Positions 1 to 39,670 of a DNA stretch of 64,000 nt are shown piece by piece; the first letter of the stretch is position 1; each line of letters begins with the position of its first letter. Position numbers and translations under genes: made by a program. The notes below the pieces were generated by a model, which searched no databases, was not told where the DNA came from, and saw nothing but the letters and a program-made list of their open reading frames with translations. Origin of the DNA: Mayamaea pseudoterrestris (lineage: Eukaryota); the NCBI GenBank assembly GCA_027923505.1, contig BROI01000039.1, positions 1-64,000 on the forward strand, given 5' to 3'.

Positions 1-3000
1 GCTGGTGTCTCAGGGGATGGCAATGTATTTGGTGACAACTTGTCACCAGTCTCAGCCTGCAGATGTCATGACATTCAAACGCCCCTACAGCAAGCCCTGT
101 AGGTGCCCAAATTACACCAGAATGGTGGCAACATCATTTTTTAGGCTGCGCTACAAGATGGTATGCTTGGCTGGTGTTTTAGGGGATGGCAATGTATTTG
201 GTGACAACTTGTCACCAGTCTCAGCCTGCAGATGCCATGACATTCAAACGCCCCTACAGCAGGCCCTGTAGGTGCCCAAATTACACCAGAATGGTGCCAA
301 CATCATCTTTCAGGCTGCGCTACAAGGTGGTAAGCCTGGCTGGTGTCTCAGGGGATGGCAATGTATTTGGTGACAACTTGTCACCAGTCTCAGCCTGCAG
401 ATGCCGTGACATTCAAACACCCCTACAGCAAGCCCTGTAGGTGCCCAAAATACACCTGAATGGTGCCAACATCATTATTCAGGCTGCGCTACAAGATGGT
501 AGGCTTGGCTGGAGTCTCAGGGGATGGCAATGTATTTGGTGACAACTTGTCACCAGTCTCAGCCCGCAGATGCCGTGACATTCAAACGCCCCTACAGCAA
601 GCCCTGTAGGTGCCCAAATTACACCAGAACGGTGGCAACATCATTTTTTAGGCTGCGCTACAAGATGGTATGCTTGGCTGGTGTCTCAGGGGATGGCAAT
701 GTATTTGGTGACAACTTGTCACCAGTCTCAGCCTGCAGATGCCGTGACATTCAAACACCCCTACAGCAAGCCCTGTAGGTGCCCAAAATACACCTGAATG
801 GTGCCAACATCATTATTCAGGCTGCGCTACAAGATGGTAGGCTTGGCTGGAGTCTCAGGGGATGGCAATGTATTTGGTGACAACTTGTCACCAGTCTCAG
901 CCTGCAGATGCCATGACATTTCAAACGCCCCTACAGCAGGCCCTGTAGGTGCCCAAATTACACCAGAATGGTGGCAACATCATTTTTGAGGCTGCGCTAC
1001 AAGATGGTAGGCTTGGCTGGAGTATCAGGGGATGGCAATGTATTTGGTGACAACTTGTCACCAGTCTCAGCCTGCAGATGCCGTGACATTCAAACGCCCC
1101 TACAGCAAGCCCTGTAGGTGCTCACATTACACCAGAATGGTGGCAACATCATTTTTTAGGCTGCGCTACAAGATGGTATGCTTGGCTGGTGTCTCAGGGG
1201 ATGGCAATGTATTTGGTGACAACTTGTCACCAGTCTCAGCCTGCAGATGCCATGACATTCAAACGCCCCTACAGCAAGCCCTGTAGGTGCCCAAATTACA
1301 CCAGAATGGTGGCAACATCATTTTTTAGGCTGCGCTACAAGATGGTATGCTTGGCTGGTGTCTCAGGGGATGGCAATGTATTTGGTGACAACTTGTCACC
1401 AGTCTCAGCCTGCAGATGCCATGACATTCAAACGCCCCTACAGCAGGCCCTGTAGGTGCCCAAATTACACCAGAATGGTGCCAACATCATCTTTCAGGCT
1501 GCGCTACAAGGTGGTAAGCCTGGCTGGTGTCTCAGGGGATGGCAATGTATTTGGTGACAACTTGTCACCAGTCTCAGCCTGCAGATGCCGTGACATTCAA
1601 ACACCCCTACAGCAAGCCCTGTAGGTGCCCAAAATACACCTGAATGGTGCCAACATCATTATTCAGGCTGCGCTACAAGATGGTAGGCTTGGCTGGAGTC
1701 TCAGGGGATGGCAATGTATTTGGTGACAACTTGTCACCAGTCTCAGCCCGCAGATGCCGTGACATTCAAACGCCCCTACAGCAAGCCCTGTAGGTGCCCA
1801 AATTACACCAGAATGGTGGCAACATCATTTTTTAGGCTGCGCTACAAGATGGTATGCTTGGCTGGTGTCTCAGGGGATGGCAATGTATTTGGTGACAACT
1901 TGTCACCAGTCTCAGCCCGCAGATGCCGTGACATTCAAACGCCCCTACAGCAGGCCCTGTAGGTGCCCAAATTACACCTGAATGGTGCCAACATCATTAT
2001 TCAGGCTGCGCTACAAGATGGTAGGCTTGGCTGGAGTCTCAGGGGATGGCAATGTATTTGGTGACAACTTGTCACCAGTCTCAGCCTGCAGATGCCATGA
2101 CATTTCAAACGCCCCTACAGCAGGCCCTGTAGGTGCCCAAATTACACCAGAATGGTGGCAACATCATTTTTGAGGCTGCGCTACAAGATGGTATGCTTGG
2201 CTGGTGTCTCAGGGGATGGCAATGTATTTGGTGACAACTTGTCACCAGTCTCAGCCCGCAGATGCCATGACACTCAAACGCCCCTACAGCAGGCCCTGTA
2301 GGTGCCCAAATTACACCAGAATGGTGGCAACATCATTTTTCAGGCTGCGCTACAAGATGGTATGCTTGGCTGGTGTCTCAGGGGATGGAAATGTATTTGG
2401 TGACAACTTGTCACCAGTCACAGCCTGCAGATGCCATGGCACTCAAACGCCCCTACAGCAGGCCCTGTAGGTGCCCAAAATACACCAGAATGGTGGCAAC
2501 AACATTTTTCAGGCTACGCTACAAGATGGTATGCTTGGCTGGTGTCTCGGGGATGGCAATGTATTTGGTGACAACTTGTCACCAGCCTCAGCCCGCAGAT
2601 GCCATGACATTCAAACGCCCCTACAGCAGGCCCTGTAGGTGCCCACATTGCACCAGAATGCTGCCAACATCATTTTTCAGGCTGCGCTACAAGATGGTAT
2701 GCTTGGCTGGTGTCTCAGGGGATGGCAATGTATTTGGTGACAACTTGTCACCAGTCTCAGCCTGCAGATGCCATGACACTCAAACGCCCCTACAGCTGGC
2801 CCTGTAGGTGCCCAAATTACACCAGAATGGTTGCAACAACATTTTTCTGGCTGCGCTACAAAATGGTATGCTTGGCTGGTGTCTCAGGGGATGGCAATGT
2901 ATTTGGTGACAACTTGTCACCAGTCTCAGCCCGCAGATGCCATGACATTCAAACGCCCCTACAGCAAGCCCTGTAGGTGCTCACATTGCACCAGAATGGT

Positions 3001-3100
3001 GGCAACATCATTTTTCAGGCTGCGCTACAAGATGGTATGCTTGGCTGGTGTCTCAGGGGATGGCAATGTATTTGGTGACAACTTGTCACCAGTCTCAGCC
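1..3100. repeat. 169-bp tandem satellite (family A), ~18 copies, runs off window start
   Basis: Near-identical monomers GCTGGTGTCTCAGGGGATGGCAATGTATTTGGTGACAACTTGTCACCAG... recur every 169 bp; variant pattern repeats every 1184 bp. Confidence 0.98.
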
Positions 3101-3495
3101 TAACACCGTTGACGATTTCGCAGTCAACGTCTTACCTCCAAAAAGCTCCGATACAGGGTCCTTGGCCACGGTCTGTACAGCTCTTGATGGAGATGGCTTG
3201 TTGAATAGTCTTGCGCTCGCCACTACACGAATACGACTGCACTCTCGTCGCAAACTAGTAGTTCTATATTGTGAGCTTATCGCTACATCGCTACATCGAC
3301 CACTCGGAAGATCATCCGATCAATCCGTTTCTTTCAATCACATTACATCAGTCGTAATCGATTGTTCCATTCATACAATGCATCCACACGACGGTTGCAC
3401 ACTTTCTTCATTCACATGTCACATACGACAGCTGCAGACTCGACACAAGCTAATTAGGGTTCGGGCTCTTGACTTCGCCGCTCTGCGACTTGTCA
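3101..3495 (-). repeat. 3' LTR (395 bp)
   Basis: Matches 9384-9778 with about 9 substitutions; minus strand reads TGACAAGTCG...GGTGTTA. Confidence 0.95.
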
Positions 3496-3503
3496 CTCCC
3501 CTC
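3496..3503 (-). other. Polypurine tract
   Basis: Minus strand GAGGGGAG immediately precedes the 3' LTR. Confidence 0.85.
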
Positions 3504-3629
3504 GGGTACGCTGCTCGTCGTAGCCGCATTCTTGTCCTTCACAATCGCATACGATGTATCGCCGCGCCAAAACAATACTGGCTTGAGCAATGGCATCGCA
3601 TCACAGTACGGCAGGTACCGTCTGCGGCA

Positions 3630-6600
3630 TCGCCCGGCATGTTCTCCTTTCCGTCAATCTTCACAAACTTGATAATCCCTGCAGCAACTGCCCAACGAAC
3701 ACGATGGTAGGCCAACGCATTGTGTCGCTTGGACAACGTTGAACTCGGGATTGTAGATTGCGTAATCACTGCTTGGTTGTCTCCGTACATCCAGGCAGAC
3801 TTCTCCAATGGTACGCCCATAGCCATGAGCGACGCACGTAGAGAAATGCTGATATCGCCGAATTCCGATCCGAAGGTCGCAGTCTCGACTGTAGCCTGGA
3901 GTTTGCAATGCCAGTCGACAGGCGTCTGGTTGACAAATGACAAAACTCCTTCCAATGACTTGCCTGTCACCATGCAATGCATGAGACACGCATCCTCGAA
4001 AGTTGACGTTCGGACAGTCACACCCTTTGGTGGTGGGTAGACATCCAACATCTCATCAACTCCATCCTTCCCGTAAACGCTGCGCTCCCAATCTTGTTCC
4101 TCCATGGTACCGAAGTATTCCTCGTTGGCTGGCCACTTCGTACGGAAACGGATTGCTGCGTCCGGTAACTCTCACAAATATCCACAGACTCGCTTCACCC
4201 GCTGCAGGTGTCCCTTGCGCGGCTCCACACGGAATCGCGACAGACTCACAACTGCTACGGCAATGTCAAATCGTCCCAAAGCAATCGCCCACTGAAGTGC
4301 TCCGACTAGAGACTGGTAAATCTTCTTCTCTTGGTCGTTCAGTAGCTCGCTTTGGTCAAGTTCTGGATGATCGTCTTTGTCGATTGGTGATGAGTACTTC
4401 TTCGGAGGACCTTCAAACAAACGCTCGTACTGCGCCAAGAGTTTCGCAACGTAGGTCTTGGCCGACCAGTAAAGGGTTCCGTCAGGGTCTCGTCCAAAGT
4501 CACCGCCGAGATGATACTCGGGATGTCCAACACCTTTGAGCTTAAACTTGTACTTCTCCTCTAGCATCTAACGCTGCTGGATCGTCTGAATTATTCAACA
4601 GATCGTCGACCCATACACAGAGGTAGTCGTAGCTGTCGCCGGCGTCCTTGATCCATAGATCGGAATCACAATAGGACGGCTTCCACCCTTCCGCAAGTAG
4701 GGCGTCGGCTAAGCGTTCGTGAAATCGTGCTCCGCTCGTTCGCAATCCGTACAAAGCCTTGATGATGACCAGGATGTGTCCTTCGCGCTCCCCAAACTTG
4801 GGGCCTCCAACGAAGTATACCTTCTCCTTGGTGAACGCTTTGAGATAAGCATTCCCAATGTCACCGACCATGCACTTCTTGCCGTTCGCTTCTCCAATGA
4901 CGAGAGCTAGACGCATTGCCTTCAATGAGATAACACTGGAGTAGGCATCGTCGTTGTCTTTCGTCAGGTGGCCGCCTGCAACGAGACGTGCCTTGTATCG
5001 CAAATCGTGCTTGACATCGTACACAAAGTGGACTCGGATCTTTTGGTAACCAGCTGGTGGTGCTGTGGTGGAACTCGGACCGAGATCTTGAAACGTCTCG
5101 TACTCGTCCAGGTTCGCAAGCTCCACGCCTTCCGCATCCGTCCACTTCGTGTGCCCTGCAGCTTCTTGTAGACGACGCGCTTCCTTCCAGTCTCGGGGTA
5201 CTTGGACTCCAAACTTGTAGCGCGGTCCATTCTTCTGCTGCTCCATTCGGGCGGTCGCCACCTTGCGCGCAACCTTCTTGGCGTTCCGGGCCCATCGATT
5301 CAACGATGTCCATCCGTCCATGTCGAGAAGATTATGCTTTTGCGCGTAGGCTGCCACTGATACCTTGTCGCTTTCGATCATCGCGTTGAGAGGCTCCCAA
5401 GTCTTGGATCCATCGTCCCATTGTACAAGGACGTTCCACTTGGAGTGCTTCCAGTTCTTCAACTTGCTCGTCAGCGGACCCTGATGGTCTAGAATCTCCT
5501 TGAAGAACCATTTACGCTCAGGATTTGCCATGTCTTGGTTCACTTCGTTCTCGTAGAGATCGGAAACCTCGACATAGGACATGACTTCGTCCGCTTCGCC
5601 GTTACCAAGCTTCAGCATCATTTTAATGTTCTGATGGTTCTGGGCGTCGCGGTTGTTCAGCTTGCTCATGACGGTCGCTCGAACTTCTTGCCCGTCGTCC
5701 GTCTTCATGAGAAACGACTTGCCGATAAGTTCATTGGGTGCATACTTCGGGAGTTTGCGCCACGGATTGATGTTCTTCTTCTTCGGCTTGTCGTCGTCGT
5801 CATCGGCAGGATAGGATCACCTCCCCCGTCGGTCATATCGTCGTCTTCCGGGTATTCCACCGTCTCAACCAAAGGGGTATCGTCTTTGTCAGGAATGAAA
5901 GAATCATCGTCTCTGCTGTCGGCGTCGGTAATCTTCTTGATCATTTCCGGCATAAGGATCTCGCCACCTAGACCAGGTACGGTATAGAGACGCGGCTCCC
6001 CTTCTTTCATGACTGGGGAAGCAGGTGCCGGGACGCGAAGGTTCAAAAATTTTGGGTCGTTTCGGGGTAGGCAAACCGATCGCGTCATGATCTCGTGGGT
6101 CTCGCAATCGCAGATGTAGTACGTCAGGTCATCTCCGCACGTCGTGTTGGGACCAAGCCAGTACGCCGCGCGCTGGCGTAGGGCCCCGACATACACCTTG
6201 ACAAAGTAGTTGACAATTTCAAACCAACGAAAATGCAAATACTTCGACACGTCGGGGACTTGCCCAGTGATAAACTCGATCGGAGACTTGCCGTCCAAGG
6301 CAGGATGCGACAAATGACGGTACATCTCGGTCTGAAAGAGTAAAGTGCGTAGCCAGAAGCATGCCGGAGTGCCCGTTCGGTCCATAAGTCGTTCATGACT
6401 TTCCTTTACGTGCCCGATGATGCGCTCGGCTGGATTTTGATTCTGATAGTACGGCTCCGATGTATGACGACGGCGAATCATGAACTCGCGCATTACTTCG
6501 TCAAACTCGGCACTCATCGCTTCTTTCGCATTATCCGAGAAGACTTCCAACGGAGCTCCAAACTCGCGGATGAAATCTCGGAATCATTTCGGTACGTCAA

Positions 6601-7966
6601 CTTTCGTCCGCATGGGATACACGACAATGATCTGACTGCGACAACCATAGAATAGCTGCACGCATGTGCACCCTGCATGTCCGTCGATATGATCATCCAT
6701 GGCTGGTTTGTCAAAGAACATGGTGTCATGGGCCACTCGATCATCTAGATGGTAGACGTTCAGGAATCGGCTCTTTCGATGCATTCGTGGGGGGTATCGG
6801 CGCTCGTGCATGTTGAACTGCGTGCTATGGCGCAAAGTATCTTTGATCGTCTGCGCCGGGTACCATGCAAAGTTCGGCAGCAATGCGTCGATATCAGGTT
6901 TCTTTGGCAGGATAGACTTGTAGGGCTGATAGACGAGATCTGCATTGTACTTCTGTATGACGGCACAAACATTCAGCTCCTTCTTGGTGTAAACAGGTTG
7001 ATTGTCATGTCCAAGATTCGTATAAGTTACGTTGCTTTGACGATGGGTGCGATTCCGCGTACGCAAACGTGTCACGCGCGTGAAGCCCTCTTCGTCGTCA
7101 CTGTCTTCGTCGTCTTCATCACGCGACAACAAGTCCGGTACGTCGTCCTTGTCGTCATCATCATCCGAAGAGTCATAGTCGTCGTCCTCGGTCGGTTCGA
7201 CGTCAAACTCATTCGGATCCCAAGGCCCATCAAAGGTCATCATGACCCGAGGTAGGGTGTGAAGCTCATGCGCCGACACTGGAAACATTGGCAAGGACGC
7301 CATGCCACTTTCCATTCCAAGCATAAACTTGTATCCGTCTGGCGTTTCGATTCGTAACTTGCCACCAAAGTTGTAATGCTTGTCGTTGACATGAAGTCCG
7401 AAGGCTTCCATCTGCATACTCGAATGAATCGTCTTGCCGGTTCCAGAATATGCGTAATTATGGAACTCGCCGACGACCCAACCCTTGGTGCTCTTAAGCT
7501 TGGCGACTGCTGTGACGGTAGACAGGTCCGGAAGTTTGAGACCACCGACTCCAGTGACTTCAATCTTGTGGAACTTGTCCTCGGTAAGGATGCGGCCGTC
7601 CGCTCCCCATACTCCGCCACTCGCGCCGCGATCGACAGTCGACGCTGAATGCTTATCCAAGTCAATGCTCGCGACTTTGTACTTGCGACTCTGAGCAATA
7701 TTCGCTCCCCGAGTCGTAGTCGTGGGCTGGTCTGGACCTAAGAAACTTCGCATCGCTGAGCCACGGCTGGTGTTGTTCACACGCTTGGTCGCCGCACTCG
7801 CCGTCGTTGCCGCTGATGAAGTGGCTGCGACGTTTGCGTTGCGTGTTGTACTCGTCGTCTGCGTGGTGCCTGCCTGTGTTGCTGATGTCGAACCACCTGC
7901 AGCACTGGCCGCTCGACTCGTACCACGGCGTTCAAACACTTCATGTTGCTGATCACGGGTAAGGAG
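3630..7966 (-). pseudogene. pol: pol (protease, integrase, chromodomain-like, RT, RNase H), disrupted
   Basis: PR DRGASGG; IN DDE residues in HDT/SDNA/PAER; RT YKARLVAGGH, ALYGLRTSG, WVDD; RH ETATFGSEF, GDNQAVI, KRHNALAYHRVR. In-frame TGA at 6584-6586 and 4172-4174, frameshifts near 5810 and 4570, apparent deletions in RNase H. Confidence 0.93.
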
Positions 7967-9286
7967 TCACCACGTGTTTGGTGGAATCGTCGCATTCACG
8001 TCGCTGGGAATTTCGATCGTCTTCGTGTCGGCATAGCTGCGAACATACGAACGAGTATCTCCCCGACCGCGGCCGCCGCCGCCTCGTCCCGTGCTCAAGT
8101 CGCCGCGACCACCGCCCCCCTGATTGGATTGCTGATTGTTGCTGCTACTTGGCGTAGACTGGGAATTGTTCGCGCTTGCCTTCTTCGTCTTCTCCTTCTC
8201 TTTCTTGGTCTGCTCAGATTGGTTCGCCTGGCGCTTCTCGGTCTCCTTGATGATACGACGATTGTCAGATTGACGTGCAACGTCATTCAGGAGGTTCCAA
8301 AACTGGGTGTACGCCATCGGGTTGCCGGTCTTGGACTCTTCGATCAGCGCCATGTTCACCGCCGCTGCCATATCTGCATGGCGGAAAACCGCGCGCTCCA
8401 AAATCTGACGCTTCGTGCTTGCTGTAAGTAGCTTGGTTTCCTCGGCGTAGTCATTGTAGTTCTCTTCCTTGCTGGACCACTGGATGAGCCAATTGACGAG
8501 AGACTTGGCGTAACCCGCGTCGAGGGTGAAATTGCGCCATTCGTCTTCGGCCGAACGTAGATCCAACTTGCGCGCCATCCCATCGAGGAATGTCGCCTCC
8601 AACTCTGCAATGCACGCTGAGGCATTCGCGCTGTCGATGTGCTTGCGGACAATGAGCTTGCTCTGCGGTGTCTTGCAGGTATACTCGAGCGCCGCTAAAA
8701 GCTTCGAACACTGATACTGATACTCGGCGAATTCGGGCTCGAGTGCAGCTGGTGCCTTGAACTCGTCGTCCCAAAAGTAGCCAAGTCGCTCGCTTCGCAT
8801 GCGGTTCTTGAAGGCCCGCCAGTAGGAGCAGAACTTGCGATCGTTCTTGAGCTCCAGCATGGTCTTCAGATCCAACTTGATGTCGTGTCGCTTCGTTGTG
8901 GTGTCGTTGCCTCCGATAACGCTGAAGTCTCCGAAACTGCGGTTTCCTGCGGTCGGCGACCCCGGTGCTACTGGTAGGTCTCGGCTCGTAATGTGGTCTT
9001 TCTCCAGGTCTTGCCATTGCGCAGTCGTCCGACGTTGCTCGTGAATCCAACTCATGAGCTTGCGCAATCGGCTTGTTCGTATCGTCGACCAATGGTACTG
9101 GTTCTTAATGTTCGTCACGTCTTGTTCCGACAACTCGGCCATCGCCTCCGCAGTCGTGAGTTCCTCGGATTCGAAGCATACTGCGGTAGGGTCGTTTGGA
9201 TCCCAAGCTGCGGACGCTGCGAGCCACGGAATGTCGAAGACTTTACCGACGGCACGCTTGTAGGTCGTTACATCAATCGTCGTCAT
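7967..9286 (-). pseudogene. gag: gag region, in frame with pol across a TGA
   Basis: 439-aa ORF directly after the 5' LTR with an RGG-rich C-terminus; reading continues in frame W*LLTRDQQHEVFERR into pol. Confidence 0.85.
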
Positions 9287-9383
9287 GGTGGAGGTTGATC
9301 AGAGGAATCGGACTCGCTGCAGACGAATGTGTCACGATAGCTCCCTCGCTCGTTCTCGCTCTCAAAGCACTGAAATGTTAATC

Positions 9384-9778
9384 TAACACCGTTGACGATT
9401 TCGCAGTCAACGTCTTACCTCCAAAAAGCTCCGATACAGGGTCCTTGGCCACGGTCTGTACAGCTCTTGATGGAGATGGCTCATCGAATAGTCTTGCGCT
9501 CGCCACTACACGAATACGACTGCACTCTCGTCGCAAACTAGTAGTTCTATATTGTGAGCTTATCGCTACATCGCTACATCGACCACTCGGAAGATCATCC
9601 GATCAATCCGTTTCTTTCAATCACATTACATCAGTCGTAATCGCTCATTCCATTCATACAACGCATCCACACGACGGTTGCGCACTTTCTTCATTCACAT
9701 GTCACATACGACAGCTGCGGACTCGACACAAGCTAATTAGGGTTCGGGCTCTTGACTTCGCCGCTCTGCGACTTGTCA
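9384..9778 (-). repeat. 5' LTR (395 bp)
   Basis: Direct repeat of 3101-3495. Confidence 0.95.
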
Positions 9779-11090
9779 TCCATGAGATTCAAACGCCCCT
9801 ACAGCAAGCCCTGTAGGGGCCCAAATTACACCAGAATGGTGCCAACATCATAATGCAGGCTGCGCTACAAGATGGTAGGCTTGGCTGGTGTTTCTGGGGA
9901 TGGCAATGTATTTGGTGACAACTTGTCAACAGTCTCAGCCCGCCGACGCCGTGACATTCAAACGCCCCTACAGCAAGCCCTGTAGGTGCCCAAATTACAC
10001 CAGAATGGTGCCAACATCATTATTCAGGCTGCGCTACAAGATGGTAAGCTTGGCTGGTGTCTCAGGGGATAGCAATGTATTTGGTGACAACTTGTCACCA
10101 GTATCAGCCCGCAGATGCCGTGACATTCAAACGCCCCTACAGCAAGCCCTGTAGGGGCCCAAATTACACCAGATTGGTGCCAACATCATTATTCAGGCTG
10201 CGCTACAAGATAGTAGGCTTGGATGATGTCTCAGGATATGGCAATGCATTTGGTGACAACTTAACACCAGTCTCAGCCCGCAGATGCCGTGACATTCAAA
10301 TGCCCCTACAGCAAGCCCTGTAGGTTCCCAAATTACACCAGAATGGTGCCAACATCATTAATCAGGTAGCGCTACAAGATGGTAAGCTTGGCTGGTGTCT
10401 CAGGGGATGGCAATGTATTTGGTGACAACTTGTCACCAGTCTCAGCCCACAGACACTGTGACATTCAAACGCCCCCAGCAAGCCCTGTAGGTGCCCAAAT
10501 TACACCAGAATGGTGCCAACATCATTATTTAGGCTGCGCTACAAGATGGTAGGCTTGGCTGGTGTCTCAGGGGATGGCAATGTATTTGGTGACAACTTGT
10601 CACCAGTCTCAGCCCGCAGATTCCATGAGATTCAAATGCCCCTACAGCAAGCCCTGTAGCTGCCCAAATCACACTAGAATGGTGCCAACATCATTATTCA
10701 GGTAGCGCTACAAGATGGTAAGCTTGGCTGGTGTCTCAGGGGATGGCAATGTATTTGGTGACAACTTGTCACCAGTCTCAGCCCACAGACACCGTGACAT
10801 TCAAACGCCCCTACAGCAAGCCCTGTAGGTGCCCAAATTACACCAGAGTGGTGCCAACATCATTATTCCGGCTGCGCTACAAGATGATAGGCTTGGCTGG
10901 TGTCTCAGGGGATGGCAATGTATTTGGTGACAACTTGTCACCAGTCTCAGCCTGCAGATGCCGTGACATTTAACTGCCCATATAACATGCCATGTATACA
11001 CCCAAATCACACCAGAATGGTGCCAACATCATTATTCAGTCTGCGCTACAAGATGTTATGCCTGGCTGGTGCCCTAGTAGACTACAAGGC
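9779..11090. repeat. 169-bp satellite (family A), ~7.5 further copies, diverging toward the edge
   Basis: Same monomer resumes after the LTR. Confidence 0.97.
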
Positions 11091-11269
11091 TAGATATTGC
11101 AGTAATTGAGTGGTAACTGTTGGCTATCTGAGAGCATACTCCTATAGTATAGCAATGTGTTTCGGATAGCTAACATGTTTTTAATTTGGGCCATTGCATG
11201 CAATACAACCATGACATCATATGGGTCGCTGCTGCAGTATTCCAAGTAATGTTGTAAGACTTGTCCAAA

Positions 11270-12400
11270 TACATTCTCCTGCAACCAACTACACGGTGCT
11301 TCATGAGTGGCCTTCAATGACTACCCCCAATAGTCTTGTTCCATGAATACTGTTCTAGATATCTTTGGGGACACATATGCGGGAAAATTGTTGCATAACA
11401 ATCACTCCCAGCTCATGTGTAGCATCAGTTGTTTGGGAGGGCAAAGATCCACAGTAACCAGCTCCATGGTGCTACAGTGTGTGGCCTTTAAAGACCACCC
11501 GCCATAGTCTTGTTCCATGAATTCTGTTCAGGTTATGCTTGAAAACACATATGCGGTGAGATTGGTGCATAACAATCATCCCCAGCTTACGTGTAGCATC
11601 AGTTCTTGGAAAAGGCAAACATCCACACAGTAACCAGCTCCATGGTGCTACAGTGTGTGGCCTTCACAGACTACCCTCCATAGACTTGTTCCATAGATTC
11701 TGTTCTGGCTATGCTTGGGGTCACATATGCGGTGACATTGGTGCATATTTATCATTTCCAGCTCACGTGTAGCATCAGTTGTTTGGGAGGGCAAATGTCC
11801 ACACAGTACCAGCTCCATGGTGCTACAGTGTGTGGCCTTCAAAGACCACTTGCTATAGTCTTGTTCCATGAAATCTGTTCTGGCTATGCTTGGGGACACA
11901 TATGTGGTAAGATTGGTGCATAAAAATTATTCCCAGCTCACATGTAGCATTGGTTCTGTGGGAGGGCAAACAACCACACAGTAATTAGCTCCATGGTGCT
12001 ACAGTGTTTGGCCTTCAAAGACCAACCGCCAAAGTTGTGTTCCACGAATTTTGTTCTGGCTATGCTTGGAGACACAAATGCGGCAAGATTGGTGCATAGC
12101 AATCATTCCCAGCTCACATGTAGCATTAGTTGTTTGGGAGGGCAGACATCCACGCAGCAACCAGCTCCATAGTGCTACAGTGTGTGGCCTTCATGGACTA
12201 CCCAATAGTTTTGCTCCATGAATTCTGTTTTGGCTATGCTTGAAGACACATATGCGGTGAGATTGGTGCAGAACAATCATTCACAGCTCATGTGTAGCAT
12301 CAGTGGTTTGGGAGGGCAATCCAGACATCCACACAGTAACCAGCTCCATGGTGCTACAGTGTGCGGCCTTCAAAGACTACCCCCCAGTCTTGTTCCATTC
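11270..12400. repeat. ~176-bp tandem repeat (family B), ~6.5 diverged copies
   Basis: GCTCCAT(G/A)GTGCTACAGTGT anchor at 11461, 11637, 11812, 11988, 12164, 12343. Confidence 0.93.
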
Positions 12401-17937: not shown

Positions 17938-18232
17938 TACGTCACAAGGCAATAGTACGAAACGAGTGCCAGTGTCAATTGCGTCACAAGGCAATATATA
18001 CGAAACGAGTGCCAGTGAAAACAGCGTCACGAGGCTATAGTATGAAACGAGTGCCAGTGAAAACGGCGTCAGCAAATAAACCAGTGCCAGTGAAAACTAC
18101 GTCATAAGGCTTTAGTGCGAAACGAGTGCCAGTGATAACTACGTCATCAGGCAATAGTACGAAACGAATGCCAGTGTCAATTAAGTCATAAGGCTATAGT
18201 ACGAAACGAGTGCCAGTGTCAATTACGTCACA
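17938..18232. repeat. ~42-bp minisatellite, ~7 copies, in a divergent intergenic region
   Basis: Unit approximately ACGTCACAAGGCAATAGTACGAAACGAGTGCCAGTGTCAATT. Confidence 0.92.
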
Positions 18233-18251
18233 ATTGCGGCTAAAATGACTA

Positions 18252-29886: not shown

Positions 29887-31971
29887 ATGGTATCAGTCGA
29901 ATTGATTGAGGACCCCTTGGATTTGCGGGGTCGTGTCGATGCAGCCCATGGCACGCTGCATCGTACCTTCATTGTTCATGCGCAAATACCTCTCACGGAA
30001 ACCATGACGCATCAAACGCATGGTGATCATTACGACAAAGCCTTGGAGGAGGGAGGAAGAGCTGCCAAAGTCTCGCTGGCTGACTTTTTTGCCAGGAAAC
30101 AGGCCACGTCGGCCAAGGATTTCGTCGTTGCACAAAATAATATGGTCTGTTGCTTGGAGCCGCTCGAGTGGATGACAGCTTCCACCTCACAAACGAGACG
30201 CCGAAAGCGATCAGCTTGCGTTCCTTTCATATTTGAACGTACGGATGTCTTTTGTCAAGGAGAAATGCTTCATATATATGCGCGACTCTTTGTTTACGCG
30301 AGTTCTTCAGCAGGAGCGACGAATGAAGATGCCAATCAACCTTCTTTGTCGGCCAACGAAACGTTCATTGCGATTGCCCAAAGCTTGCTGGTTCGTCTGC
30401 TACTGCTCGATTCTACTCAATTAGACGATCTCATGAATCATGTCGCAACTACTGTATTCCAGGAACGGCTTCGGTCACAGCTAAAGCAACTCAACTTGGT
30501 CGCCTTTGTTGCGAATGGCTCCATTCTGCCGCGCAAAAGTGGCGCTAGCCAAGCGCCCATGGCTAGTCCACCCGCCGTGCCCTTTTGTGCACCGATGGAC
30601 AGCTCCATGAGCCGAACGATACAAGTTGAAATGGGCGCGCTCGCTGCATTTGTCAACGTCAACGGACAACACAGTCGGCGCGGCTTGAATGCAACAGCAA
30701 ATAACGCAACGAATGTAATTCACATATCCGGAATGGGAGTTCCACGAGGCATTACCTTGATTGTCGGCGGCGGCTACCATGGCAAGTCAACCATGCTACG
30801 CTGCATTGCCTCTGGCGTCTACAACAAGTGTTTCGGCGACGGCCGCGAGTTTTGCGTCACGGTTGACGACGCCGTCACAATCCGCGCCGAGGATGGCCGT
30901 CACGTGAACAATTGCAACATTAGTGCATTCATATCCAATCTACCAAGTCCACCAGGTACTAGTTCAGCAGTCGACACGACACATTTCTCAACTGCCGAAG
31001 CGTCGGGGTCAACGAGTCAGGCGGCGAGTACAGTCGAGGCGATTGAAATGGGTGCGTCCGCGTTTTTAGTCGACGAAGATGTCAGTGCCGCCAATTTCAT
31101 GGCGAGGGATGGTCGCATGCGAGCCATGATCATGGACGAGTCGATTACACCACTCTTGTATCGCGTCAATGGCCTTTACGCGGCCAAGGGAATATCGTCA
31201 ATCGTTGTCGTCGGAGGTGTCGGCGACTGGTTGGATGTGCCTGACCAAGTAATTTTAATGGACAAGTACATTTGCAAAGATGCGACAGCCAAAGCCAAAT
31301 CAGTGTCAAAACAATTTTCCCATGGGCATGTGCAGTACGCAGGGCGTGGCGTAGTGCATCGACTAGAGTGGAATAAATCGGGTACGCCCAATCCTCGACG
31401 CCCGTGCGCCGACTCGTGTACGCGTTATGATCCCACGCATAACTCAATCTCCCTCGTGGAGGGCATGGACGCCATTCGGGTTCATCCGTTGGACGATGCT
31501 GTTCAAATTGACAATGATGAGCACGACGATGATTACATTGACATGTCACGATGCGAGCAACTCGTGGGCAAGAAGCCACAGCTGTACGGCACGGGGATGT
31601 GCGCCCTGCAGTTGATTGAAATTTGTCGAAAAAATCCAAACTATGGTCTGGCAGACTTTTTGACTAAGCTCGACGACTTTCTAGATGAAGTGGGCATGTC
31701 CTTTTGCTTTGGCGATTATGACAGAGACTGTACACGCGCTGCGCTGCATACGTCGGGGCATTGGAAGCTACTGGTGGAAACAATGGGTTGTGCATTGCGG
31801 CCTCGTCGATTCGAAGTCGGACAAGCTTTGACGCGATTGCATGGTATCAAGATGGTTGTACTACCTGTTACAGAGGACGAAGCCGAAATTGCGGAGAGGG
31901 TCGACGCTGAACGAAGGAAACAAGAGCTACTTGATTTGTGGAATAAACGGCGCGCTCACAAGATACCGTAG
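29887..31971 (+). CDS. COG3044-type ABC-class ATPase
   Basis: FVANGSILPRKSG, Walker A GGGYHGKST, IRAEDGR, ASGSTSQAA, LVDEDVSAANFMARD. Confidence 0.85.
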   Translation: MVSVELIEDPLDLRGRVDAAHGTLHRTFIVHAQIPLTETMTHQTHGDHYDKALEEGGRAAKVSLADFFARKQATSAKDFVVAQNNMVCCLEPLEWMTASTSQTRRRKRSACVPFIFERTDVFCQGEMLHIYARLFVYASSSAGATNEDANQPSLSANETFIAIAQSLLVRLLLLDSTQLDDLMNHVATTVFQERLRSQLKQLNLVAFVANGSILPRKSGASQAPMASPPAVPFCAPMDSSMSRTIQVEMGALAAFVNVNGQHSRRGLNATANNATNVIHISGMGVPRGITLIVGGGYHGKSTMLRCIASGVYNKCFGDGREFCVTVDDAVTIRAEDGRHVNNCNISAFISNLPSPPGTSSAVDTTHFSTAEASGSTSQAASTVEAIEMGASAFLVDEDVSAANFMARDGRMRAMIMDESITPLLYRVNGLYAAKGISSIVVVGGVGDWLDVPDQVILMDKYICKDATAKAKSVSKQFSHGHVQYAGRGVVHRLEWNKSGTPNPRRPCADSCTRYDPTHNSISLVEGMDAIRVHPLDDAVQIDNDEHDDDYIDMSRCEQLVGKKPQLYGTGMCALQLIEICRKNPNYGLADFLTKLDDFLDEVGMSFCFGDYDRDCTRAALHTSGHWKLLVETMGCALRPRRFEVGQALTRLHGIKMVVLPVTEDEAEIAERVDAERRKQELLDLWNKRRAHKIP

Positions 31972-32070
31972 AATAGATGAAAATTTAATGTTTTAATGTT
32001 TATTATGTACTTAAACTACCGTGTTAGCTTGTCTATTGGCGATGTGTACACGAACACGATCCACAAATGC

Positions 32071-32511
32071 TTAGAAGTGATCAACGACTTTGGAAACCCA
32101 TTTCTTTCCATCTGGAAACCGAATGCCACCTTTCTCCCAGACTCCTGGCACCTTGTTTGGTCCACCGATTGGTGTTTCGTCAACCAGAATTTGTTCTCCG
32201 TTGACCTTGCCGGTGAGCGTCCAGGCCTTTTCTCCGGTTCCGAAGCCACATGCTGGGTTAGGATCCGTTCCAGTAAGCTTGGCGACCTTGGTAAATCTGT
32301 TAACCTTGACCTGGCGGGTGCATTCCGGGTGCTGTTCATCCGTGTAGGAGCCATTCAAGTCAACAACGGCGTTAGATACGAGTGCGCTGCCTCCAATGAT
32401 GGCTGATGCTGTTGCGACGGAAGCGGCCTTCTTGACAAAGCTTGGTACAGCCCACGCATTCGTCGACACAGCGAGCGAAGCTGCAAGGCTAATGTATAGA
32501 GAGGTCTTCAT
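32071..32511 (-). CDS. Small protein, probably thylakoid-lumenal
   Basis: Signal peptide with TNA-W, second Ala-rich hydrophobic stretch ending VSNA, mature beta-rich domain YTDEQHP...FPDGKKW. Confidence 0.7.
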   Translation of the reverse strand: MKTSLYISLAASLAVSTNAWAVPSFVKKAASVATASAIIGGSALVSNAVVDLNGSYTDEQHPECTRQVKVNRFTKVAKLTGTDPNPACGFGTGEKAWTLTGKVNGEQILVDETPIGGPNKVPGVWEKGGIRFPDGKKWVSKVVDHF

Positions 32512-32710
32512 GATGTGCTTGATTTGAGATAATGATATGGTTGATTGGGTTGATGAGGTTTCCAGATCTTGGATCTCGAACGTTTGCCGATTCGAAGAAG
32601 ATCGTCGAAGCCCTGGAAGGTCACGGATCCTTCGAATCGAAAATCGGTCATTCTGTGTGTGAGTATTCACTATAGGTGCCACGATTGTGTCTAGGGGGCT
32701 TGGTTTATGG

Positions 32711-35700
32711 ATGTTGTTGTCCATTTGTTGAATTTGCGGAGTCTCTGGGCATAGTGATGAGGTCCACACCAAAATTGACAAGTCTATGAGTCTGATTCAA
32801 TGTAAACGTCCTTGAGGTGCACCGCTAGCAGGTCCAACAAGTTGTTGGATCAGCTGAGTATCACCATGGCACATTTGGTGGCGGATACTGGGGTGCTAAT
32901 GACCATCATAACAACAAACATGAATTGAAAGCAATTGGAGGGCTCAGCCGGAATTGCTGATGATCCCTGCCGCAAAAAAGGGTGCAGTGCTGGCACATTC
33001 AACCACTTGTTGAATGTGCGGAGTCTCTGGGCATAGTGATGGGTTCCACACCCAAACTGACAAGTCTACAAGTCTGATTCAATGTATACATCCATGTCTG
33101 TTGTATTATGGGGTCTGGGGTCTGTAGGCCATTTTGGAAGTCTGACTTGCCACTTGAGGTGCACCGCTAGCAGGTCCAACTAGTTGTTGGATCAGCTGAA
33201 TATCACCATGGCACATTTGGTGGCGGATACTGGGGTGCTAATGACCATCATAACAACAAACATGAATTGAAAGCATTTGGAGGGCTCAGCTGGAAATGCC
33301 GATGATCCCTGCCACCAAAAAGGATGCAGTGCTGGCACATTCAATCATTTGTTGAATGTGCGGAGTCTCTAGGCATAGTGATGGGTTCCACACCCAAACT
33401 GACAAGGCTACAAGTCTGATTCAATGTATTTGTCCATGTCTGCTATATTATGGAGTCTGGGGTCTGTAGGCCATTTTGGAAGTCTGACTTGCCACTTGAG
33501 GTGCACCGCTAGCAGGTCCAACAAGCTGTTGGATCAGCTGAGTATCACTATGGCGCATATGGTGGTGGATACTGAGGTGCTACTGACCAAAGTATGGCCC
33601 TTCATAACAACAAACATGAATTGAAAGCAATTGGAGGGTTCAGCCAGAATTTCTGATGATCCCTGCTGCCAAAAAGGGTGCAGTTCTGGCACATTCAACC
33701 ATTTGATGAAAGTGCGGAGTCTCTGGGCATAGTGATGGGTTCCACACCTAAATTGACAAGTCTACATGTCTGATTCAATGTTAAGATCCATGTCTGCTAT
33801 ATTATGGGGTCTGGGGTCTGTAGGCCATTTTGGAAGTCTGACTTGCCGCTTGAGGTGCACCGCTAGCAGGTCCAACAAGCTGTTGGATCAGCTGAGTATC
33901 ACCATGGAGCATATGGTGGTGGATACTGAGGTGCTAATGACCAATGTATGGCCCTTCATAACAACAAACATGAATTGAAAGCAATTGGAGGGTTCAGCCA
34001 GAATTTCTGATGATCCCTGCCGCCAAAAAGGGTGCAGTGCTGGCACATTCAACCATTTGTTGAATGTGCGGAGTCTCTGGGCATAGTGATGGGTTCCACA
34101 CCCAAACTGACAAGTCTACAAGTCTGATTCAATGTATTCCTCCATGTCTGCTATATTATGGGGTCTGGGGTCTAAAGGCCATCTTGGAAGTCTGACTTGC
34201 CACTTGAGGTGCACCGCTAGCAGGTCCAACAAGTTGTTGGATCAGCTGAGTATCACCATGGCGCATATGGTGGCAGATACTGAGGTGCTACTGACCAACG
34301 TATAGCCCATCAAAACAACAAACATGGATTGAAAGCAATCGGAGGGCTCAGCTGATAATGCTGATGATCCCTGCCACCAAAAAGGATGCAGTGTGGCACA
34401 TTCAACCATTTGCTGAAAGTGTGGAGTCTCTGGGCATAGTGATGGGTTCCACACCCAAACTGACAAGTCTACAAGTCTGATTCAATGTATACATCCATGT
34501 CTGTTGTATTATGGGGTCTGGGGTCTGTAGGCCATTTTGGAAGTCTGACTTGCCACTTGAGGTGCACCGCTAGCAGGTCCAACTAGTTGTTGGATCAGCT
34601 GAGTATCACCATGGCACATTTGGTGATGGATACCGGGGTGCTAATGACCAACGTATGGCCCATCAAAACAACAAACATGAATTGAAGGCAATTGGAGGGC
34701 TCAGCTGATATTGCTGATGATCCCTGCCACCAAAAAGAGTGCAGTGCTAGCACATTCAACCACTTGTTGAATGTGCGGAGTCTCTGGGCATTGTGATGGG
34801 TTCCACACCCAAACTGACAAGTGTACAAGTCTGATTCAAAGTTAACGTCTATGTCTGCTATATTATGGGGTCTGGGGTCTGTAGGCCATTTTGGAAGTCT
34901 GACTTGCCACTTGAGGTGCACCACTAGCAGGTCCAACTAGTTGTTGGATTAGCAGAGTATCACCATGGCATATTTGGTGGCGGATACTGGGGTGCTAATG
35001 ACCATCATAACAACAAACATGAATTGAAAGCAATTGGAGGGCTCAGCTGGAAATGCTGATGATCCCTGCCGCAAAAAAGGGTGCAGTGCTGGCACATTCA
35101 ACCATTTGTTGAATGTGCGGAGTCTCTGGGCATAGTGATGGGTTCCACACCCAAACTGACAAGTCTACAAGTCTGAATCAATGTATATGTCCATGTCTGT
35201 TGTATTATGGGGTCTGGGGTCTGTAGGCCATTTTGGAAGTCTGACTTTCCACTTGAGGTGCACTGCTAGCAGGTCCAACAAGTTGTTGGATCAGCCGAGT
35301 ATCACCATGGCACATTTAGTGGTGGATACTGAGGTGCTAATGGCCAGCGTATGGCCCATCAAAACAACAAACATGAATTGAAAGCAATTGGAGGGCTCAG
35401 CCAGAATAGCTGATGATCCCTGCCACCAAAAAGGGTGCAGTGCTGGCACATTCAACCATTTGTTGAATGTGCGGAGTCTCTGGGCATAGTGATGGGTTCC
35501 ACACCTAAATTGACAAGTCTACAAGTCTGATTCAATGTAAACGTCCATGTCTGCTATATTATGGGGTCTGGGGTCTGTAGGCCATTTTGGAAGTCTGACT
35601 TGCCACTTGAGGTGCATTGCTAGCAGGTCCAACAAGTTGTTGGATCAGCTGAGTATCACCATGGCACATTTAGTGGTGGATACCAGGGTGCTAATGACTA

Positions 35701-38700
35701 ATGTATGGCCCATCAAAACAACAAACATGGATTGAAAGCAATTGGAGGGCTCAGCTGATAATGCTGATGATCCCTGCCACCAAAAAGGGTGCAGTGCTGG
35801 CACATTCAACCATTTGTTGAATGTGCAGAGTCTCTGGGCATAGTGATGTGTTCCACACCTAAATTGACAAGTCTATGAGTCTGATTTAATTTAAACGTCC
35901 ATTGTTGCTATATTATGGGGTCTGGGGTCTGTAGGCCACTTTGGAAGTCTAACTTGCCACTTGAGGTGCACCACTAGCAGGTCCAACAAGTTGTTGGATC
36001 AGCTGAGTATCACCATGGCGCATATGGTGGTGGATACTGAGGTGCTAATGACCAATGTATGGCCCTTCATAACAACAAACATGAATTGAAAGCAATTGGA
36101 GGGCTCAGCTGGCAATGCTGATGATCCCTGCCGCAAAAAAGGGTGCAGTGCTGGCACATTCAACCACTTGTTGAATGTGCGGAGTCTCTGGGCATAGTGA
36201 TGGGTTCCACACCAAAATTGACAAGTCTACAAGACTGATTCAATGAAAACATCTATGTCTGCTATATTATGGGGTCTGGGGTCTGTAGACCATTTTGGAA
36301 GTCTGACTTGCCACTTGAGGTGCACCGCTTGCAGGTCCAACTAGTTGTTGGATCAGCTGAGTATCACCATGGCACATTTGGTGGTGGATACCAGGGTGCT
36401 AATGACCAACGTATGGCCCGTCAAAACAACAAACATGAATTGAAAGCAATTGAAGGGCTTAGCTGGCAATGCTGATGATCCCTGCCACCAAAAAGGATGC
36501 AGTGCTAGCACATTCAACCACTTGTTGAATGTGCGGAGTCTCTGGGCATAGTGATGGGTTCCACACCCAAACTGACAAGTCTACAAGTCTGATTCAAAGT
36601 AAACGTCTATGTCTGCTATATTATGGGGTCTGGTTTCTGTAGGCCATTTTGGAAGTCTGACTTGCCACTTGAGGTGCACCGCTAGCTCATAACAACAAAC
36701 ATGAATTGAAAGCAATTGGAGGGCTCAGCTGGAAATGCTGATGATCCCTGCCGCAAAAAAGGGTGCAGTGCTGGCACATTCAACCATTTGTTGAATGTGC
36801 GGAGTCTCTGGGCATAGTGATGGGTTCCACACCCAAACTGACAAGTCTACAAGTCTGAATCAATGTATATGTCCATGTCTGTTGTATTATGGGGTCTGGG
36901 GTCTGTAGGCCATTTTGGAAGTCTGACTTTCCACTTGAGGTGCACTGCTAGCAGGTCCAACAAGTTGTTGGATCAGCCGAGTATCACCATGGCACATTTA
37001 GTGGTGGATACTGAGGTGCTAATGGCCAGCGTATGGCCCATCAAAACAACAAACATGAATTGAAAGCAATTGGAGGGCTCAGCCAGAATAGCTGATGATC
37101 CCTGCCACCAAAAAGGGTGCAGTGCTGGCACATTCAACCATTTGTTGAATGTGCGGAGTCTCTGGGCATAGTGATGGGTTCCACACCTAAATTGACAAGT
37201 CTACAAGTCTGATTCAATGTAAACGTCCATGTCTGCTATATTATGGGGTCTGGGGTCTGTAGGCCATTTTGGAAGTCTGACTTGCCACTTGAGGTGCATT
37301 GCTAGCAGGTCCAACAAGTTGTTGGATCAGCTGAGTATCACCATGGCACATTTAGTGGTGGATACCAGGGTGCTAATGACTAATGTATGGCCCATCAAAA
37401 CAACAAACATGGATTGAAAGCAATTGGAGGGCTCAGCTGATAATGCTGATGATCCCTGCCACCAAAAAGGGTGCAGTGCTGGCACATTCAACCATTTGTT
37501 GAATGTGCAGAGTCTCTGGGCATAGTGATGTGTTCCACACCTAAATTGACAAGTCTATGAGTCTGATTTAATTTAAACGTCCATTGTTGCTATATTATGG
37601 GGTCTGGGGTCTGTAGGCCACTTTGGAAGTCTAACTTGCCACTTGAGGTGCACCACTAGCAGGTCCAACAAGTTGTTGGATCAGCTGAGTATCACCATGG
37701 CGCATATGGTGGTGGATACTGAGGTGCTAATGACCAATGTATGGCCCTTCATAACAACAAACATGAATTGAAAGCAATTGGAGGGCTCAGCTGGCAATGC
37801 TGATGATCCCTGCCGCAAAAAAGGGTGCAGTGCTGGCACATTCAACCACTTGTTGAATGTGCGGAGTCTCTGGGCATAGTGATGGGTTCCACACCAAAAT
37901 TGACAAGTCTACAAGACTGATTCAATGAAAACATCTATGTCTGCTATATTATGGGGTCTGGGGTCTGTAGACCATTTTGGAAGTCTGACTTGCCACTTGA
38001 GGTGCACCGCTTGCAGGTCCAACTAGTTGTTGGATCAGCTGAGTATCACCATGGCACATTTGGTGGTGGATACCAGGGTGCTAATGACCAACGTATGGCC
38101 CGTCAAAACAACAAACATGAATTGAAAGCAATTGAAGGGCTTAGCTGGCAATGCTGATGATCCCTGCCACCAAAAAGGATGCAGTGCTAGCACATTCAAC
38201 CACTTGTTGAATGTGCGGAGTCTCTGGGCATAGTGATGGGTTCCACACCCAAACTGACAAGTCTACAAGTCTGATTCAAAGTAAACGTCTATGTCTGCTA
38301 TATTATGGGGTCTGGTTTCTGTAGGCCATTTTGGAAGTCTGACTTGCCACTTGAGGTGCACCGCTAGCAGGTCCAACTAGTTGTTGGATTAGCAGAGTAT
38401 CACCATGGCATATTTGGTGGCGGATACTGGGGTGCTAATGACCATCATAACAACAAACATGAATTGAAAGCAATTGGAGGGCTTACCTGGCAATGGTGAT
38501 TATCACTGCCACCAAAAAAGGTGCAGTGCTGGCACATTCAACCATTTGATGAATGTGTGGAGTCTCTGGGCATAGTGATGGGTTCCACACCCAAACTGAC
38601 AAGTCTACAAGTCTGATTCAATGTATACGTCCATGTCTGCTGTATTATGGGGTCTGTAGGTCATTTTGGAAGTCTGACTTGCCACTTGAGGTGCACCACT

Positions 38701-38703
38701 AGC
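32711..38703. repeat. 354-bp tandem satellite (family C), ~17 copies, with 342-bp variants
   Basis: Period 354 (for example 35181 to 35535); near-exact 1682-bp duplication 35005-36686 / 36687-38368. Confidence 0.98.
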
Positions 38704-39345
38704 CCATCTAGTCTCCAAGTGCTGCCACAGGGGCTGCCCAAATTTCATATCCCCAGGCTCGTCAACAGTAGCAGGCTGCCATTCTCCACTCCAATGGCCA
38801 AAGAGGTATAAATTGATAGCTAATAGATATTGTTACATCATGTTGAAAGTGCAATGCATTCATCACTAGCCCATCTAGTCCAAGTATGCCATAGGGACTG
38901 CCTAAATTTCGCGGCTCCTTGCTTGTCTACAGTAGCTGGCTGCCATAACCCACTCCAACGGCCTGAGAGGTATATAATGATAGCTGGCAGTTGAGAAGCA
39001 TTGTTTCATGATGTCGAAAGTGCAATGCATTCATGGCTGGCCCATCAATTATCTAAGTTCTGCCACAGGGACTGCCCAAATTTTGCGGCTAAGGCTTGTC
39101 CACAGTAGCAGGCTGCCATACACCACTCCAATGGCCAGAGAGGTATAAAATGACAGATGGAGTTGATAGGCATTGTTTCATGATGTCGAAAGTGCAATGC
39201 ATTTCATTGCTAGCCCATCTAGTCTCCATGTTCTGCCACCGGACTGCCCAAATTCTGTGGCTCCTGGCTTGTCCACAGTAGCTGGCTGCCATAACCCACT
39301 CGAGCAGACAGAGGTATTTATTGGTAGCTGGCAGTTGACAGGCAT
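38701..39345. repeat. ~170-bp tandem repeat (family D), ~3.7 diverged copies
   Basis: GCCCATC anchor at 38702, 38869, 39040, 39213. Confidence 0.9.
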
Positions 39346-39349
39346 TTTT

Positions 39350-39670
39350 TTCTACAAGATAAGTTGACTGGCTGGTGCCTCAGTGAACTGCAATGTGATT
39401 GATGATAACCTGTCACCAGTCTGAGCTAGCAGCTTCCATGCCTTTTGAATGTCCATGCCTTGTGCCATGTGCATGCCCAAACAAGCCAGAATGGTGCTAA
39501 CATCCTTATTTAAGGTGCGCTACAAGAAATGTTCACTGGCTGGTGTCTCCGTGGACTGCAATGTGGATGGTGATAACTTGTCACCAGTCGCAGCCAGCTG
39601 CTGCCAAGCCTTTCAACTGCCCATACCTCTAGCCATGTGTATGCCCAAATCAAGCCAGAATGGTGCCAAG
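39350..39670. repeat. Two diverged copies of the family A 169-bp unit
   Basis: CTACAAGA...GGCTGGTG...GCAATG...TGATAAC(C/T)TGTCACCAGTC...CCCAAA...CCAGAATGGTGC are colinear with the family A monomer. Confidence 0.88.

Follow-up and report, generated by a model that had tools for sequence, protein, structure and literature searches.

The window, a 64,000-nucleotide stretch of the Mayamaea pseudoterrestris genome, carries two islands of tandem repeats that lie 20.3 kb apart in the same orientation, with satellite A on the same strand in both, as an earlier note made from the letters alone had described. The first island begins at the contig start, which cuts its first array: 18 units (18.3 copies by TRF) of the 169-bp satellite A, subfamily A1 (1-3101, plus strand; CpG observed/expected 0.24). 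A Ty1/Copia LTR retrotransposon is inserted in A on the minus strand (3101-9778), after which 7.6 copies of an A1 variant unlike the left array follow (9779-11087, plus strand; 9783-11071 by TRF). Next come a half copy of an element that we call K (11088-11282, minus strand), placed by the K-family alignment and tree and 91% identical to the copy at locus L001 over 191 bp, and 6.4 copies by TRF of the 176-bp satellite B (11283-12398, plus strand), a probable passenger of K whose first base abuts the K terminus. The second island, all on the plus strand, comprises 17 copies (11.1 + 5.8) of the 354-bp satellite C, an old dimer of about 177 bp (32721-38703; 32811-38703 by TRF), 3.5-3.7 copies of satellite D, with units of 173-174 bp (38699-39350; 38699-39301 by TRF), and 1.9 copies of A subfamily A2, with units of 168-169 bp (39351-39669; 39352-39666 by TRF). 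No Rfam family matched in the window. TRF bears out the arrays and periods of the earlier note but not its layout for the first island: the supposed single array of 26 A units is two arrays with the 6.7-kb Copia element between them, and A does not adjoin B directly, the 195-bp "spacer" between them being half of K. Both islands are real, yet they are patchworks of unrelated nucleosome-sized satellites that are dispersed genome-wide.

The A array of the second island had been taken for a relic of the first. It is a separate subfamily with long arrays of its own elsewhere: identity to the A of the first island is about 74%, and to arrays elsewhere in the genome, some of them at least 5 kb long (L120, L121), up to 88%. 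The reading of C as 2 x 177 bp holds, weakly, with an identity at lag 177 of 0.37, whereas the remaining lags between 168 and 186 give 0.22-0.27, and a half-versus-half alignment score of 45, where shuffled sequences reach at most 27. The C of the window is a locus-specific variant, C elsewhere being mostly 346-349 bp and 75-81% alike, and it contains an exact 1682-bp duplication (35005-36686 = 36687-38368) that is either a very recent event or an assembly artefact.

The retrotransposon that splits the first island is young. Its LTRs (3101-3495 and 9384-9778) are 97.7% alike, and at least 40 copies of this LTR occur at 98-99% in genome G000, of which the window is C39:1-64000. Paired LTRs, an RVT_2 reverse transcriptase and, at the level of the family, 5-bp target duplications (three of eight full-length copies) identify it as Ty1/Copia; its coding region is broken into several pieces. 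The flanks of the window copy show no target-site duplication, and the A variants to its left and right differ. Joins through Copia look chimeric, so the island layouts may include assembly errors.

Satellite families, their order and their ends

A census that kept only periods of at least 100 bp identified at least nine satellite families in the genome, whose basic units all measure 168-186 bp: A 169, B 176, C 2 x 174-177, D 174, E 168, G 2 x 185, H 183, I 3 x 170 and J 2 x 176. Repeats here are not all nucleosome-sized, since a 2-kb CpG-poor insert bounded by K at L122 contains repeats of 101-132 bp. Neither blastn, local alignment with shuffles nor profile HMMs found homology among A-D; beyond a weak D-H match no cross-family similarity was convincing, and a 30-bp look-alike patch of A and B was not significant. 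Many A arrays are 90-97% homogeneous.

We consider it probable that each island is a patchwork, heterochromatin-like in character, assembled from this satellite library, and that K and a Helitron2-like family spread B. The earlier note had instead proposed an ordered C-D-A-B element, moved as one non-autonomous unit, with one module amplified per locus. The two window islands do overlap in A, some multi-module junctions are common to several loci, and Paramecium offers a precedent: according to the portions available of PMC13085455, an ORF-less Helitron spreads several satellites there, their order and connecting sequences conserved over dozens of copies. Order and connectors are not conserved here. 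The proposed order fits one of the 26 other islands with at least two of A-D, many of which are cut by the border of the retrieved sequence, and none of the 26 holds all four modules. Modules are found singly as well as linked in a variety of orders and orientations, and only 5 of 25 distinct A-D junctions outside the window are of the cassette type. A>B is found at four distinct junctions, fewer than the eight of B>A; D>C is seen at L032 and L037; and D>A does recur, at L040, in a phase that differs from that of the window. An initial same-strand bias of A/B joins (12/14) was not replicated in later loci (5/12).

Shared termini or target-site duplications were likewise absent, and A, C and D, widely dispersed without element ends, terminate at scattered phases (concentration R = 0.23, n = 78 for A; 0.03, n = 36 for C; 0.19, n = 17 for D); the K-B junction is the sole exception, and even there the far end of B is ragged (R = 0.14, n = 21). 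Terminal direct and inverted repeats of two-sided islands average 5.3 and 7.3 bp, against 4.9 and 7.8 bp in a re-paired control (n = 27). Because the modules stand alone or in varied order and orientation, and the A, C and D arrays share no ends, we regard the ordered element as very improbable.

The interpretation of the earlier note is nevertheless partly supported. A non-autonomous mobile element is involved, namely K, but it carries only B and not the whole cassette; and some multi-module junctions were copied between loci, for example A-K-B in the window and at L001. Junctions of B-E and C-G are also common to several loci, and the near-duplicate pairs L008/L009 and L025/L028 may be haplotypes. 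What replaces the attractive but wrong cassette is a model that can be tested. In it, A, C, D and the other families would reach new sites and become attached to islands already present through ectopic recombination or break repair; unequal exchange and gene conversion would then enlarge and homogenise them locally, a whole junction such as A-K-B sometimes being copied along. Junction microhomology averages 0.52 bp versus 0.67 bp in a simulated control (n = 27, the junctions of 37 that passed a score filter; the measure undercounts imperfect homology) and is thus not above control, so this recombination step leaves no direct signature.

Two smaller observations concern array ends. The end phases of A and C cluster slightly (p 0.02-0.03, uncorrected), which we do not count as evidence. 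The seeming inverted ends of the L029 island resemble, by eye, inverted pieces of a different repeat that is probably LINE-like.

Element K, its autonomous partner and satellite B

K is a dispersed element of about 375 bp with sharp ends and unrelated flanks, present in dozens of short non-autonomous copies and also in head-to-tail tandems that form arrays. Its terminal inverted repeats are asymmetric: the 5' end carries a 10-11-bp word whose complement lies some 22 bp inward of the 3' end. A short stem at the 5' end is conserved while its loop letters vary, and the 3' hairpin has a stem of only 3 bp (-1.7 kcal/mol). The exact end motifs occur 46 and 62 times in G000, versus 0 for a reversed-pattern control. 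Of 32 copies with a non-K flank, 28 carry TT in front of the 5' end, and no target-site duplication was evident in flanks read by eye. With the autonomous ORF as reference, the window copy is the 5' half; its terminus has decayed, and the A array cuts inside it.

We also identified one intact autonomous copy, 8.6 kb long (G000:C25:84146-92793), which has its terminal 40-55 bp in common with K. As only the ends are shared, K is not a simple deletion derivative. The autonomous copy encodes a stop-free Rep-helicase of 2373 aa with DUF6570, Helitron_like_N, PIF1 and Ulp1 (Peptidase_C48) domains. No endonuclease family matches it at an E-value threshold of 0.01, and relatives at 45-53% identity have similar domain sets. 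Judged by sequence, the 8.6-kb element and K are Helitron2-like. A canonical Helitron (5' TC, 3' CTRR, AT target, no terminal inverted repeats) differs in ends and target, and a strict Helentron needs an AP endonuclease fused to the Rep-helicase, which this ORF lacks. As defined in the parts available of PMC4067079 and PMC13085455, Helitron2 and the Helentron-associated non-autonomous elements (HINE, DINE-1) share with our pair the asymmetric terminal inverted repeats, an inverted repeat beside the 5' one, a T-rich target without duplication, a single Rep-helicase ORF without endonuclease, short copies with the same termini, and tandems. Unlike them, the autonomous partner has a C-terminal Ulp1/C48 protease domain and a Rep motif 2 off the published pattern, matching neither set of diagnostic residues cleanly, and the inverted repeat is about 10-11 bp with a weak 3' hairpin.

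That the spacer is half of K, and that K is tied to a Rep-helicase element by common ends, is new. At the level of listings, the open-licence literature yielded no description of a Helitron2-like autonomous/non-autonomous pair with a satellite passenger in diatoms, and the words "satellite" and "tandem" do not occur in the main text of the genome paper (PMC9724779), whose supplementary repeat table may bear on novelty. The diatom offers a matched pair, with one satellite caught as its passenger.

K adjoins 23 of 88 B ends versus 7 of 187 ends of A, C, D and G, all seven in islands where K joins B; part of the B sample was drawn with a query containing the K half, and a B-only query gave mostly the same loci. 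The fusion of K to the start of B always has the same breakpoint. Eleven B-linked K halves form one clade with the second K of L002 (support 99/97), and the window K pairs with that of L001 (100/98). At L002, L016 and L148, K-B-K units are flanked by non-satellite DNA; K-B-K sites lie at G000:C15:219976-221465, C3:974065-976518 and C11:692167-692920. The contigs of two studies diverge at K ends (loose ends L016:2972 and 4464).

Given the ends that K shares with the Rep-helicase element, its presence at B ends and the single clade, B was probably spread by rolling-circle read-through from a Helitron2-type element, the full-length parent of which survives in the genome. A B array would have received a single K insertion at a TT target. 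Rolling-circle copying that overran a K end, or that continued from one K into another (K-B(n)-K), would then have scattered short B arrays with one end fixed and the other ragged. Roughly half of the B loci lack an adjoining K, so later loss or a second route is needed.

The K-B clade could also have arisen by recombination that copied one junction without a transposase, the whole library moving by recombination, reinsertion of circular DNA and segmental copying. The dispersal of A, C and D without element ends and the other copied junctions fit this, as does the K terminus beside B, often mutated or decayed, the window included. At L016, none of the 15 listed joints (of 25) is an empty site that skips the whole K-B-K, although contigs cannot prove absence. 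Passive copying does not predict that the outer boundary of K-B is an exact K terminus followed by unrelated flank, as seen at L003, L016, L125, L141, L148 and L150, and we hold this explanation to be unlikely.

Conversely, all the satellites might be present or former Helitron2-type cargo, the termini of A, C and D having been lost with age or other families having served as carriers. G000 has four Rep-domain loci (the C25 copy and three more), one of the four about 1.2 kb from a C array; K forms arrays itself, and its ends enclose the other CpG-poor cargo at L122. There is also the oyster precedent: the sections available of PMC7492417 describe Cg_HINE elements of the Pacific oyster that disperse satellite-like arrays of 140-180 bp. 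The short B arrays (about six copies of 176 bp), dispersed with rolling-circle ends, resemble these; they differ in that B lies mostly outside one whole K or between two Ks rather than between a left and a right arm, in that we noticed no flanking microsatellite, and in that B alone, out of at least nine satellites, has such ends. Yet, duplicated flanks and fragments of other repeats aside, the 86 outer island flanks share no terminal boxes, and many A arrays are highly homogeneous with no termini left. We consider such a general origin quite improbable, and retain the reading in which K carried B alone.

CpG loss, nucleosome length and Copia insertion

All modules are CpG-poor, as the earlier note observed, with CpG observed/expected at 0.16-0.31 versus 1.05-1.09 in gene-rich DNA and TpG/CpA in excess; CpG-type columns are 2-5 times more variable than the others. 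At C2:13-20.5 kb, SNF2-like ORFs come after a DNA-methylase ORF. The islands resemble the CG-methylated islands of repeats and transposons that DNMT5 maintains in diatoms (described in the consulted part of PMC9998398) in being isolated and CpG-depleted within a CpG-normal, gene-dense genome that has a DNA-methylase + SNF2 locus; they differ in that nucleosome-length satellites dominate. Nucleosome phasing and heterochromatin at the islands are supported only indirectly. The islands may have been CpG-methylated for long, probably by a DNMT5-like enzyme, with phased nucleosomes; together these would favour units of about 170-185 bp and account for the restriction of Copia to one part of the A unit. 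Literature searches listed no diatom nucleosome repeat length, and no match on diatom DNMT5 methylation with periodic nucleosomes or on CpG-depleted satellites or tandem repeats in diatoms.

Satellite centromeres of plants and animals, such as those of alpha satellite and CEN178, likewise have units of nucleosome length among which LTR retrotransposons are inserted. Unlike these, the islands are small and many per contig, at several places on one contig between ordinary genes. Their GC content of 45-52% also differs from the low-GC signal, under 33%, reported for Phaeodactylum centromeres in the part available of 10.1101/096016.

A broader reading would join these observations, and we offer it tentatively, as unlikely in its entirety: satellites, in place of the low-GC signal of Phaeodactylum, would make up the silent chromatin and possibly the centromeres; a Helitron2 family would capture arrays and seed them by read-through; DNMT5-type methylation and nucleosome positioning would have made at least nine unrelated repeats converge on 168-186 bp; and phased arrays would steer young Copia into one 14-bp stretch of A. 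If it is true, this compact genome could serve to test how satellites arise, how their lengths converge and how chromatin guides integration. The convergence of nine unrelated repeats on nucleosome length, together with phase-restricted Copia, bears on why satellite monomers are nucleosome-sized, a question that a small, culturable genome makes testable. The Copia insertion sites cluster at one phase of the A unit, about positions 54-67 (R = 0.82, n = 10, p about 2e-4), and the clustering persists after merging (n = 8, p = 0.004).

Satellite islands without a fixed order

Tandem Repeats Finder recovered the five satellite arrays of the window at the positions and periods that the earlier note had claimed, in island 1 (1..12398) and island 2 (32721..39669), with ordinary genes occupying the DNA that separates them. 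The modules are CpG-poor as described (CpG o/e 0.16-0.31 vs about 1.05-1.1 in genes, with TpG/CpA in excess), and satellite C is indeed an old dimer, its identity being 0.37 at lag 177 against 0.22-0.27 at neighbouring lags. Other parts of the description had to be revised. The A repeats of island 1 are present, yet the single continuous array proposed for them is split by a Copia element (3101-9778); modules A and B, taken to be directly adjacent there, are separated by 195 bp of other sequence (11088-11282); and the A of island 2, read as a relic, belongs to a second A subfamily that forms long arrays elsewhere in the genome. Island 1 is also incomplete, because the window opens at the start of contig C39. 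The C array contains an exact 1682-bp tandem duplication (35005-38368), its other units being about 92% alike. Perfect palindromes of 17-27 bp, possible protein-binding or cruciform sites, lie at positions 30-48 of the A unit and at 23-39 and 195-221 of the C unit; a palindromic core of 9 bp is common to the two satellites. Minisatellites of short period at 17938-18233 and 56794-57167 (42 and 51/93/186 bp) have normal CpG and are unrelated to the islands.

We annotated 152 stretches of the assembly with a library of tandem units drawn from those stretches themselves. A census of periods of at least 100 bp gave nine satellite families, whose basic unit is 168-186 bp or which are dimers, or in one case a trimer, of such units; apart from a weak match between D and H, the families showed no convincing homology to one another. 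Each of modules A, B, C and D turned up at numerous loci distributed over many contigs (counts being lower bounds). Among the entries listed in searches of open-licence literature, none described diatom satellites of this kind.

The islands had been proposed to descend from an ordered mobile element, C-D-A-B. Among 59 tabulated islands outside the window, many of them clipped at the border of the stretch taken, 26 contain at least two of the four modules; one of these fits the order (L040, D followed by A), none holds all four, and five more match only if extra modules are disregarded. Ten two-sided islands contain a single family. Cassette-type junctions account for 7 of 27 distinct A-D junctions, two of the seven being the window's own. 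We rejected the ordered cassette on its variable order, on array ends scattered across the repeat unit, and on terminal direct or inverted repeats of two-sided islands that did not rise above control. Different loci nevertheless have junctions in common, so bits of the patchwork are copied: B-E at L007/L012, C-G at L027/L033, and A-K (K being the dispersed element treated below) in the window and L001, which are related and differ in A phase. For A, C and D, the mode of spread is one that we infer.

A Helitron2-like element and satellite B

The mobile part of the earlier proposal does find a counterpart, in a Helitron2-like element that probably carries module B. The spacer at 11088-11282 matches K, a dispersed sequence of about 375 bp whose copies have constant start and end letters and unrelated flanks. 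Its exact end motifs occur 46 and 62 times in the assembly, and 0 times in a reversed control. The first end, preceded by TT in 28 of 32 copies, carries a word of 10-11 bp with a short inverted repeat after it; the complement of that word is found about 22 bp inside the opposite end. Variants with identical ends and different middles occur, as do head-to-tail tandems. At L122:695-3038, K ends bound a CpG-poor stretch of 2 kb in which tandem repeats have periods of 101-132 bp, a further cargo-bearing derivative.

Searching the genome for the Helitron Rep domain yielded four loci, one of which shares K's ends: an intact-looking autonomous element of 8648 bp on contig C25 (84146-92793; L098:247-8894). 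Its single stop-free ORF of 2373 aa carries DUF6570, Rep, PIF1 helicase and, C-terminally, Ulp1/SUMO-protease domains, and a domain search found no endonuclease in it. The ORF is CpG-poor (o/e 0.50) though stop-free, six tandem K copies lie beyond the element's 3' end, and related proteins in public collections are 45-53% identical to its Rep-helicase. By the feature definitions of two publications (PMC4067079, PMC13085455), the C25 element and K would be Helitron2-like, fitting Helitron2 and departing from both the strict Helentron and the canonical Helitron. The other Rep-domain ORFs are at L099:1054-6522 (1823 aa, CpG-poor, with a C array lying about 1.2 kb away), L100:871-6663 (1931 aa, CpG-normal) and L101:1495-3864 (790 aa).

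K adjoins 23 of 88 B array ends. For A, C, D and G together the count is 7 of 187 array ends, all seven of them in islands that also have K joined to B. The point at which B starts after K is identical at many loci, while the far end is ragged (end-phase concentration R 0.14). In a midpoint-rooted tree of 37 K halves, built on one 190-bp segment and including the near-duplicates L005/L013 and L016/L102, one clade (support 99/97) unites the 11 B-linked halves with the second K of L002, and the window's half groups with L001 (100/98). K-B-K units stand between non-satellite flanks at L002, L016 and L148. A single insertion of K into B was probably followed by the spread of B through read-through or K-to-K rolling-circle copying, on the model of the comparable rolling-circle spread proposed for oyster Cg_HINE elements (PMC7492417). 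Against transposition of K-B count the absence of K from about half of B loci and, at L016, the absence of an empty site among the joints listed; the K-B junction may instead have been copied passively. Judging from sequence, we nonetheless regard the mobile component of the islands as a Helitron2-like element with module B as its putative cargo. At L123:1210-6724, a 985-bp K-B-A unit forms a tandem duplication with 99% identity, and a large inverted duplication contains its mirror image.

Probable methylation and Copia insertion

CpG-type columns of the satellite units are 2-5 times as variable as other columns which, with the low CpG o/e and the TpG/CpA excess, points to long methylation. 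On contig C2 (L097:1209-8546), a DNA-methylase ORF is followed on the same strand by SNF2-like ORFs (one match above the cut-off, one faint), and the locus fits a DNMT5-like candidate; DNMT5 is described as the maintainer of CG methylation on Phaeodactylum repeats (PMC9998398). Unlike Phaeodactylum centromeres, which are reported as low-GC (10.1101/096016), the islands have 45-52% GC and occur several to a contig.

The Copia LTR is present in at least 40 copies at 98-99%. Satellite A accounts for 13 of 42 LTR flanks (some rows being internal breaks), and B and C for 1 each. Among 8 full-length copies, 3 have matching five-base target duplications, and in two cases (L046/L058, L049/L055) the matching halves are on different contigs, so that Copia joins are often chimeric, through recombination or misassembly. 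Since the window's copy lacks a target duplication and has different A variants on its two sides, island 1 may itself be a chimeric join through Copia. The ten independent sites in A are clustered (R 0.82, p about 2e-4; p 0.004 with sites merged to eight), seven of them falling at positions 54-67 of the 169-bp unit, next to retained CpGs at 58, 67 and 80. This clustering, a post hoc observation with n=10, suggests positioned nucleosomes, or it may reflect a local sequence preference. The Copia family is young, with copies at window 3101-9778, L041-L060 and L102-L108. LTR flanks at L045, L049, L053, L055 and L106 are CpG-poor DNA that matches none of the nine satellite families, and more repeat families therefore exist.
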